Shown here piece after piece: positions 31,290-33,256 of a stretch of 64,000 bases of DNA. The notes below the pieces were generated by a model. That model was not told the origin of the DNA. It made no database searches and worked only from the letters and a program-made list of their open reading frames with translations. Each line of letters starts with the position of its first letter. Within the stretch, counting starts at the first letter, position 1. Origin of the DNA: Escherichia coli (GTDB lineage: Bacteria; Pseudomonadota; Gammaproteobacteria; Enterobacterales; Enterobacteriaceae); assembly GCF_016026235.1 (NCBI RefSeq), contig NZ_CP065613.1. One strand, given 5' to 3'. Position numbers and translations under genes: made by a program.

Positions 31290-31694
31290 CTATCCTTCCA
31301 GTTGCCCTCCTGCAGCCCCCCTCTCCCTGCTGTATACCCCGGTACCACAACGCGGGCAGCACTTTTCCCCCTCATAATCTTCGTCACACATCACACAAAA
31401 CCACTTTCTCACCTTCACCGTATAATCCGGAACCGTCATGCCCTGCAGATGCAAACGACGGGCCTCTTTCTCTGCCGGGTCAAGCCAGGTGCATCGCAGC
31501 AGGATTTTCGCAGCAACAGTCATCTGGTCATGTTCAAACCACGGCGGTTGTCCGTCATTGCCCCGCTTAAGTGTTAACGGACAACCACAGGACACACAGC
31601 ACAAAACGTCCTGTCGGTTGTTCTTCGCGGCTTCTTTCGCCGTAACAAAATGGCCTTTGCTGTCATTCGCCATATAGCAGTTCAGAATTCGCAT
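31290..31694 (-). CDS. Hypothetical Cys-rich (putative zinc-binding) protein, paralogue A
   Basis: 134-aa ORF with CxxC...PWFEH...WFCxxC...CCPRC arrangement; paralogous to the ORF at 32852-33256. Confidence 0.5.
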   Translation of the reverse strand: MRILNCYMANDSKGHFVTAKEAAKNNRQDVLCCVSCGCPLTLKRGNDGQPPWFEHDQMTVAAKILLRCTWLDPAEKEARRLHLQGMTVPDYTVKVRKWFCVMCDEDYEGEKCCPRCGTGVYSRERGAAGGQLEG

Positions 31695-31879
31695 ATCTCC
31701 TCCTTGTATCTTGACAATTGGTTAAAATAACTGTGATTAGATTTGGCAAGGTGTATGCAGCCCGATCCCTCAAGGGGTTCATAGCCCGTAGCTCAGCGAA
31801 TGGCGCATACACTGAGCCACTCATCAGAAACCCGAACAGTTGTCAGTACGCCATAACGCATTTGCAAGGATGGGTAATC

Positions 31880-32848
31880 ATGAGTCAGCCAGGTTCACTT
31901 TGTGTGGGTATCGATGTTTCGAAAGCGATACTGGATATTGCCGCCAGCAGCGCTATTGAACAATTTTCTGTCGGCAATGACAGTGATGGCTTTGACGCCA
32001 TCATTGCTGAGTTGAGAATGTACGCCATTGCGCTGGTTTTAATGAAAGCCACTGGAGGACTTGAAACCGCCATAGTCTGTGCGCTTCAGGCAGAAGGTTT
32101 TGAGCTTGCCGTGGTTAACCCCAGACAAGCTCGTGACTTTGCCCGCGCCATGGGATACCTCGCGAAAACTGATAGTATTGATGCCAGAGTGCTTTCCCAG
32201 ATGGCTGAGGTTCTCAACCGGCATCCGGAGCGGGAACGCTTTATCAGAGCACTGCCGGATACTGAATGTCAGGTTCTCACTGCAATGGTAGTTCGTAGGC
32301 GGCAGTTGATTACGATGCTGGTTGCCGAGAGAAACCGGTTGCACCCTGCTCATCCATAGAACAGGAAAAGCATTAATATCATCATCAAAGCACTGGAAGA
32401 CGAGCTTGCGCGACTAGATGCTGACATGAACAGCCATATCCATAGCCACTTCAAAGAGCTTGCTAAGCGACTGAGCAGTATTAAAGGTGTTGGCACCATG
32501 ACGGCTGCTGCGCTGCTGGCGGAAATACCCGAACAGGGTAACCTCTCCAGGCGTGAAATCAGTGCGCTTGTCGGTATGGTTCCAGTAAACCGGGACTCGG
32601 GCACGATGAGAGGGCGACGAACCATCTTTGGCGGCAGGGCTGGTGTGCGAACAGCCCTGTACATGGCAGCGCTTGTCGCAACCCGCTTTAACCCGGTAAT
32701 AAAGGTGTTTTACATGCGACTGCTGGCCGCAGGAAAACCCAAAAAAGTGGCGCTGGTTACCTGTATACGCAAGCTGCTGACTATCCTGAACGCAATGCTC
32801 AGAAAGAACGAAGAATGGAATGAATCGTACCATCACGTTGCTCCATAA
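31880..32848 (+). pseudogene. IS110-family transposase, split by a frameshift (31880-32359 and 32426-32848)
   Basis: N-terminal part MSQPGSLCVGIDVSKAILDIA... (DEDD domain) and C-terminal part ...[21 protein letters not shown]...[27 protein letters not shown] lie in different frames. Confidence 0.65.
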
Positions 32849-32851
32849 TTT

Positions 32852-33256
32852 TTACGTGCAAGACAGTTGCTGAGCTGTCCGGGGAAGACTGAATCCTCCG
32901 GTCTGGCAGTGTGTGCAGTACCACTCCCCATAATAATCGTGGTGACATTGTCTGCAGTGCCAGCTGGCTTTACGCACCACGGGTAAGGCATCCGGTACGA
33001 ATTGCTGCAGACGTTTAATCAACTGTATTTCTCTGCGCTCCGGCCTGACATAAGGGCACTGTTGACCGTGCTCTGTCAGCCTGTCGTCAGTGTGTTCAAA
33101 CCAAGGAAGTTCAGTGTCGTATTGCGGATGGTATCTGAGTGCACTGCCACACAAGTGGCAGGTGTAGTTAGCATAAGGTGCGGCCTGTGCTGTACGGGCG
33201 CCCGTCAGACGTCCGTTGCCATCAAGAGCGATAAAGGATTTTGCGTACATAGTCAT
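32852..33256 (-). CDS. Hypothetical Cys-rich (putative zinc-binding) protein, paralogue B
   Basis: 134-aa ORF with CHLC...PWFEH...WHCRQC...CTHC; same cysteine architecture as paralogue A. Confidence 0.5.
   Translation of the reverse strand: MTMYAKSFIALDGNGRLTGARTAQAAPYANYTCHLCGSALRYHPQYDTELPWFEHTDDRLTEHGQQCPYVRPERREIQLIKRLQQFVPDALPVVRKASWHCRQCHHDYYGEWYCTHCQTGGFSLPRTAQQLSCT

Follow-up and report, generated by a model that had tools for sequence, protein, structure and literature searches.

The window analysed here is a stretch of 64,000 nucleotides (nt) from Escherichia coli (NCBI RefSeq assembly GCF_016026235.1, contig NZ_CP065613.1), and the subject of this work is a pair of small cysteine-rich proteins encoded on a genomic island within it, ZnR-A and ZnR-B (hereafter A and B), whose genes lie on either side of an insertion sequence (IS) of the IS110 family. 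The two open reading frames (ORFs) are:

31290-31694, minus strand: ZnR-A, the downstream protein, 134 amino acids (aa), DUF7828 with Zn_ribbon_11; in RefSeq a "zinc-ribbon domain-containing protein".
32852-33256, minus strand: ZnR-B, the upstream protein, 134 aa, DUF7828 with Zn_ribbon_11; in RefSeq a "putative zinc ribbon protein".

A preliminary description of the locus, made from the letters alone, had reported two same-strand ORFs encoding homologous but diverged proteins, and so they are: both are present on the minus strand with 134 aa each, and A and B share 32% identity over 125 aa (BLASTP of A against B, E=2e-16). The motifs that it singled out (CxxC, PWFEH and W-C-x2-C...C-x2-C) are located where it had put them, namely C33-x2-C36, PPWFEH at residues 50-55 and W98-x-C100-x2-C103...C113-x2-C116 in A, and C33-x2-C36, LPWFEH at residues 50-55 and W99-x-C101-x2-C104...C114-x2-C117 in B. 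Homologues of B in other genera begin with MYAKSF, which suggests that the real start of B is at 33250 and not at 33256. A region of 2.7 kb is 99.9% identical to strain NCTC9008, where RefSeq annotates both ORFs, and public databases already hold proteins 93-98% identical to A and B.

A small family of the Enterobacterales

The preliminary description could not assign a family, but both proteins are full-length members of one that joins DUF7828 to Zn_ribbon_11. The Pfam profile of DUF7828 (PF25165) matches A with E=2.3e-30 (residues 4-89, positions 2-86 of the 87 in the model) and B with E=2.7e-31 (residues 4-89, positions 1-87 of 87), and it is matched by all of 29 diverse family members; Zn_ribbon_11 (PF11682, formerly DUF3279) matches A with E=3.9e-18 and B with E=2.3e-7. 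An assignment to a well-characterised family, which the preliminary description had named as a ground for refuting it, is not what this amounts to: the family is catalogued as uncharacterised, under UniProt and RefSeq labels such as "Ybl85" and "putative zinc ribbon protein"; the names "RNA polymerase beta subunit" and "L37AE", which some members carry in the databases, look like artefacts of weak zinc-ribbon similarity. A literature search by family names and accessions (DUF7828, DUF3279, PF11682, Zn_ribbon_11) found no paper on the family in the library searched, the lone match to "Ybl85" being unrelated. Scans of A and B against NCBIfam gave nothing usable, and a profile search of PDB sequences returned ribosomal L37Ae-type ribbon noise alone (E>0.1).

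The family is small and confined to the Enterobacterales, with 324 clusters at 90% identity and, among 1.84 billion proteins, 241 representatives at 50% identity, many of which are fragments. Its hosts include Escherichia, Salmonella, Citrobacter, Enterobacter, Klebsiella, Serratia, Hafnia, Budvicia, Photorhabdus, Yersinia and Pectobacterium, and plasmids rarely carry it (33 of 72,556 records, some of them obviously chromosomes). As a discovery the pair is a modest one: Pfam and RefSeq already list the family, the IS is a dead relic, and nothing indicates an unusual mechanism.

An overlapping gene pair in island backbones

The preliminary description raised the question whether the two genes are normally adjacent without the IS, and they are. 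Of 5,426 complete E. coli genomes, 2,449 match a query made of the joined flanks in one unbroken piece, against 634 with the IS-filled arrangement, and B and A are also adjacent in at least 10 other genera of the Enterobacterales. In strain MS20645 (locus L003), which has the empty site, B occupies 8582-8983 and A 8184-8594, with an overlap of 13 nt whose sequence in E. coli is ATGCGAATTCTGA. An overlap of the same length is found in Mixta, Hafnia, Siccibacter, Tenebrionibacter, Superficieibacter and one metagenome-assembled genome of the Enterobacteriaceae. The co-directional, overlapping order of B followed by A implies co-transcription and translational coupling, and to judge from this arrangement the two genes are probably translationally coupled.

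Around 40 loci, gathered by protein-contig look-ups and a genome scan, were classified with purpose-built hidden Markov models. The pair is found downstream of an AlpA gene and/or a YagK/YfjJ gene, and the recurring order is YagK/YfjJ, AlpA, B, A, with a second YagK-like gene at the end in several genera; it was seen in Mixta, Hafnia, Siccibacter, Tenebrionibacter, Superficieibacter, Trabulsiella, Buttiauxella, Budvicia and Serratia, with variants in Citrobacter and Salmonella. The block YagK-AlpA-B-A is divergent from a second block that encodes a YfjP/YeeP GTPase and YfjQ, and beyond the pair lie variable cargo (Dpd, type I restriction-modification, KwaA, SMEK/MC6) and an integrase. What had been described as a possible island module beside a YagK-like gene is therefore a block conserved across many genera.

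Between genera, the ratio of non-synonymous to synonymous substitution rates (dN/dS) lies between 0.11 and 0.34 for B and between 0.10 and 0.19 for A. With values of about 0.1-0.3 for both genes, neither A nor B is a decaying duplicate at the level of the family, a possibility that the preliminary description had left room for. These comparisons show that the pair is a conserved element of the island backbone, kept by purifying selection and linked with AlpA and the Rep-like YagK protein.

Island context and the YagK-like gene

The island in the window is of the CP4-44/SRL type and occupies the CP4-44 position, with cobU (a cobalamin-gene remnant) on one side and tmaR-yeeA on the other. Two further features stand upstream of B:

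33416-34021, minus strand: YagK/YfjJ-like gene, the first of the module, 201 codons; in RefSeq an "inovirus Gp2 family protein" with its start at 33985.
33357-33391, minus strand: hairpin, an inverted repeat with 11-nt arms and a 13-nt loop, followed by TTTT, located in the 159 nt that separate B from the YagK-like gene.

That a YagK-like gene lies upstream of the pair had already been said and is borne out by a match to PF11726 (YagK_YfjJ_C, E=1.8e-47). The protein also matches REP_ORF2-G2P weakly (E=3.8e-5), and the motifs LRVDLR (like motif I), HYHLMLL (HUH) and YLAK are kept in the window protein and in 12 orthologues of this first type, K-12 YfjJ among them; by these motifs it looks like a rolling-circle Rep/HUH nuclease. 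The second YagK-like gene stands directly after A in several loci (7839-8474 in L023 and L027, about 7909-8457 in L025, L026 and L028, and also in L022 and L021), and its product is without the HUH histidines and the tyrosine of the first type, so that it looks like an inactivated paralogue. No trace of it was found downstream of A in E. coli. The hairpin may serve as an attenuator or form a structured site, for example the nick-site hairpin of a Rep protein.

Gp2-family genes have been met in other settings. In the mouse gut, the copy number of an integrase gene and a Gp2-family gene of E. coli Nissle was reported to go up (bioRxiv 10.1101/364505), and islands of Pseudomonas have similar Gp2-like/AlpA cores with defence cargo, their function having been left open (bioRxiv 10.1101/2024.08.29.610337).

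Some neighbouring features were recorded on the way. Upstream of the AlpA-like helix-turn-helix gene lies an inverted repeat whose 12-nt arms match perfectly across an 8-nt spacer (35135-35166, CGTTCATGTATC / GATACATGAACG), which could be an operator. Divergent from the YagK-like gene, a 66-aa ORF on the plus strand (34184-34384, RefSeq hypothetical protein WP_001297219.1) has two CxxC pairs (CRDC...CPYC) and a hydrophobic tail that is probably membrane-spanning, and it matches PHROGs of unassigned function weakly (2e-5). The DNA beside A (27479-30937; locus L001, 1-11827) is an IS graveyard in which several cargo genes have been broken; it holds an intact IS21-type istA/istB (28519-30937), an ISL3 pseudogene and remnants of IS3, IS66 and IS4, and the IS21 element is not at this position in strains MS20645 and Nissle.

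Conserved residues and predicted fold

Two alignments agree that C33, C36, F53, H55, W98/99 and the four ribbon cysteines are invariant in both subfamilies, and C67/68 is invariant in one of them and nearly so in the other. The set C-x2-C...H...C surrounds the PWFEH strand, and the pattern of cysteines and histidine as a whole predicts two metal sites per chain. AlphaFold2, whose model carries no metals, predicts the same beta-rich architecture for A and B.

The only link outside the family is a weak cross-match of the N-terminal domain with CoiA_N (PF25164), which reaches E<=0.1 in 10 of the 29 members and E<=0.001 in one (best 7e-4), with E=0.018 for A. CoiA is a PD-(D/E)XK nuclease that resolves the D-loops of transformation and has a small putative N-terminal zinc finger (bioRxiv 10.1101/2024.02.06.579203). 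Pfam found no PD-(D/E)XK domain (PF06054) in A, B or the 29 members, and without that nuclease domain they are not members of the CoiA family; the resemblance hints at a role related to DNA.

In one locus (L012, 6001-6717) the protein P0143, of 238 aa, carries an extra, partial and ribbonless DUF7828 ahead of a complete A-type protein, from which it follows that DUF7828 units can operate in tandem within one chain. The start of its gene is overlapped by 1 base by the end of the preceding B-type gene, and Kiwa-like and type I restriction genes follow.

The IS110-family insertion and the present state of the pair

In the window the pair is interrupted. The features of the interruption are:

31705-32871, plus strand: IS110-family IS, 1,167 bp including one CT core, bounds drawn by aligning the junctions with the empty site of L003.
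31880-32848, plus strand: IS110-family transposase pseudogene, 322 codons, with an in-frame TAG at 32357-32359 (codon 160).
31705-31879, plus strand: non-coding left end of the IS, 175 nt.
31695-31704, minus strand: Shine-Dalgarno region of A, AGGAGGAGAT before the ATG, with AGGAGG intact.

The gene between A and B had been described as a frameshifted IS110-family gene. The family is right, since NF033542, as a profile for the DEDD/serine-type IS110 transposase, matches both halves (model positions 1-146 with E=1.3e-27 and 193-342 with E=1.2e-34), but there is no frameshift: the two plus-strand ORFs share a single reading frame, which is broken by one in-frame TAG. RefSeq likewise flags an internal stop in NCTC9008, HS, OkiPb01704 and a Tanzanian isolate. 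The full-length IS is present in 681 genomes as a single copy per genome, with no further copy in any genome listed, it adjoins a zinc-ribbon gene in nine of the nine full-length matches listed, and the internal stop is there in every copy inspected. These copies go back to a single old insertion, now dead, that was passed on by inheritance. A related copy, H77, is a 3' fragment only and gave no finer name for the IS.

A CT dinucleotide stands at both junctions (31703-31704 and 32870-32871), and the empty target site reads TTTCCTCCT/GAGTTGTCC. Guide ("bridge") RNAs of the IS110 family are encoded in the non-coding left end. Here the left end folds with -51.8 kcal/mol (z=-1.9 against shuffled sequences) and has a stem with arms at 31744-58 and 31805-19. 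Compared with the junctions (31685-31704 and 32872-32891), it contains matches of 6-7 nt to the target CT/GAGCT and to ACAGTTG, which is identical to the last bases of the right IS end; AGCTCAG (31790-96) is the reverse complement of the target CT/GAGCT, CTGAGC stands at 31812-17, and these two also pair together. A scan of 31000-34200 against Rfam returned nothing credible, bridge RNA included. The left-end segments could be bridge RNA guides.

The remark that there is almost no spare intergenic DNA was accurate, and the empty site explains it: the IS fills the B/A overlap, provides the final five codons and the stop of B, and ends 10 nt before the ATG of A. The last six residues of B have been swapped from EEICEF to QLSCT and a stop, so that 32852-32869 is IS-derived, and this tail is drifting, as strain HS has TGA where the window has TGC and a B that is two codons shorter (ending QQLS; L042 2641-2696 against window 32845-32900). 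In the uninterrupted state the Shine-Dalgarno region of A falls within the last codons of B. At the 3' end of A (about 31317-31330) a G-run differs by +1 nt, GGGAGAGGGGGG against GGGAGGGGGGG in MS20645 and HS, which rewrites the last 12 or so residues after about residue 123 and has cost the window allele the residues NW that other genera conserve. Both altered tails lie outside the conserved core. A search for a sigma-70-like promoter reading from the IS toward A found none, so A would depend on read-through transcription across 1.17 kb of antisense IS; a search for minus-strand terminator-like sites inside the IS found none either.

These changes could be taken to mean that the module in the window is non-functional debris of a decaying island, with ORFs that are intact only because little time has elapsed. 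Copies or remnants of IS21, ISL3, IS3, IS66 and IS4 lie within 12 kb, the tail of A is frameshifted by the added nucleotide, the native C-terminus of B is lost, A is uncoupled from B, no sigma-70-like promoter reads toward it from the IS, and the dN/dS of the window B against that of L003 is 0.66. Yet that ratio is based on a very small number of substitutions and takes in the exchanged tail, both ORFs are of full length with all invariant cysteines and histidines in place, A and B are intact in all four of the IS-bearing genomes whose annotation was read, and, with no terminator-like site found on the minus strand of the IS, read-through to A is possible. We consider decay of this copy unlikely, while granting it more weight than the other alternatives discussed below.

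Proposed role and alternatives

The reading that we prefer, and hold tentatively, is that A and B are zinc- and nucleic-acid-binding accessory factors of an AlpA-controlled programme of island excision and replication, maybe as a hetero-oligomer and probably together with the YagK nuclease. In the ancestral state B and then A run in one direction downstream of AlpA and/or YagK/YfjJ, with the 13-nt overlap in E. coli and six other loci, and they belong to the conserved backbone of CP4-57/CP4-44/SRL-type islands where it borders on the variable cargo and defence genes. Both proteins would bind zinc at both of their sites and would bind nucleic acid, they may act jointly, and their most likely task would be to help the Rep-like nuclease YagK/YfjJ to recognise or to hold its DNA substrate. 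In the window the IS110 insertion into the overlap has replaced the tail of B and retained the ribosome-binding site of A, and A would be expressible only by read-through.

Zinc at both clusters is predicted from the invariance of C33, C36, H55 and C67/68 together with the four-cysteine cluster, and nucleic-acid binding from the weak CoiA_N-like signal and the gene neighbourhood. Several observations weigh against the proposal. An AlphaFold2 model of the fusion B-(GGGGS)6-A, computed with 14 species-paired alignment rows, reached a predicted TM score (pTM) of 0.38 and gave no confident heterodimer, a test that is weak either way, given the few alignment rows and the lack of an error estimate between the chains. 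The pair is also not obligatory, for the A-type gene is broken into fragments at four loci (Salmonella diarizonae, Trabulsiella, Leclercia and Atlantibacter) and several further loci have B with no A beside it. Finally, orthologues of the zinc-ribbon genes were sought in CP4-6, CP4-44 and CP4-57 of K-12, all of which carry YagK/YfjJ, and none was found, which means that YagK has no strict need of them; the same gap in K-12 is the reason that the pair has no y-name and no functional data from that strain.

A different role in the same setting would be that of small zinc-finger transcription activators in the manner of Ogr and Delta, switched on with AlpA and redirecting RNA polymerase to promoters of the island or of a helper phage. 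Ogr of P2 and Delta of P4 are small cysteine-rich late-gene activators that mobile elements encode in the vicinity of an AlpA/Vis-type regulator, and P4 Delta is a tandem duplication of an Ogr-like unit. A and B are likewise small proteins with Cys4-type ribbons, the gene directly upstream of the pair codes for an AlpA/Vis-type regulator in at least 15 loci, and the duplication in Delta is echoed by the tandem pair and by the P0143 fusion. Set against this, the Pfam profile Ogr_Delta matched none of two sets of 29 and 38 members, neither A nor B matched any of the PHROGs, a tblastn search of 50,697 phage records did not find the family, and each protein would have two different metal sites, unlike Ogr. 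An activator role seems to us quite improbable.

We give still less credence to the idea that the pair is cargo, a component of anti-phage defence or of anti-defence that has settled at a variable hotspot. It is true that in other genera the pair borders Dpd, type I restriction-modification, Kiwa-like and SMEK/MC6 genes, and that antirestriction and DUF932 genes are also found on these islands. The defence models of PADLOC, however, left B and the YagK-like protein unmatched and matched A only to PDC-S64 with E=0.02 over 30 residues, and the position and orientation of the pair are fixed with respect to AlpA and YagK while the neighbouring cargo changes completely from one locus to the next, which is typical of backbone genes and not of cargo.

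The least probable of the alternatives has A and B working apart, B with the upstream YagK that has the catalytic motifs and A with its degenerate downstream paralogue, an arrangement suggested by Citrobacter, where the two zinc-ribbon genes are each preceded by a separate gene of about 180-190 aa, by six genera in which the pair is flanked by YagK upstream and an HUH-less YagK-like gene downstream, and by the want of a predicted heterodimer, but opposed by the 13-nt overlap in E. coli and six further loci (five named genera), which favours production of both in stoichiometric amounts, and by the retention of A in E. coli, where the downstream copy is absent.

To return to the accessory-factor reading, it can be sharpened into a bolder form, in which A and B would be the DNA-recognition subunits of the YagK/YfjJ HUH nuclease, a zinc-finger specificity factor switched by AlpA, islands of the CP4-57/SRL type would replicate by rolling circle or be mobilisable, and the IS110 element would have been programmed by RNA to home into the gene junction. 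As a whole this form seems to us improbable; if it were true, the "cryptic prophage" islands that are common in the Enterobacterales would be rolling-circle replicons or mobilisable elements. Most E. coli genomes have one or several such islands, with cargo for virulence, defence and fitness, and the zinc-ribbon pair is present in 3,804 of the 5,426 complete genomes, at a median of two places per genome. The pair offers a concrete two-gene target for the study of how such islands are excised, replicated and moved.

Comparison with known systems

In the order of its genes, the window keeps to the backbone of CP4-57, CP4-44 and the Shigella SRL island (AlpA, YfjJ/YagK, Hha, YfjP/YeeP GTPase and YfjQ with DUF932). 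The SRL island has the same order, with orf38 (hypothetical), orf39 (YfjJ-like), orf40 (Hha) and orf41 (Vis/AlpA) (PMC6980539). CP4-6, CP4-44 and CP4-57 of K-12 differ from the window in lacking the zinc-ribbon genes.

The comparison with Ogr and Delta is one of size, cysteine content and gene neighbourhood; in sequence and profile there is no match, the metal sites are arranged differently, and the family of A and B is not in the phage records. CoiA_N shares with A and B a layout of short beta-strands, a CxxC, about 15-18 residues, an aromatic-x-His and a further cysteine, at a similarity below family thresholds. CoiA continues from there into a PD-(D/E)XK nuclease domain, whereas the proteins described here are 125-160 aa long and have only a C4 ribbon after the finger.

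The insertion, for its part, is like the IS110 elements that use a bridge RNA in its match to NF033542, its lack of terminal inverted repeats, its 175-nt left end, its CT junctions and its single, site-specific insertion. It is unlike them in that its transposase is inactivated by a TAG, its left end has no Rfam match, complementarity between the putative guide and the target is seen only in part, and the junction of the two zinc-ribbon genes is the one target site available for comparison.

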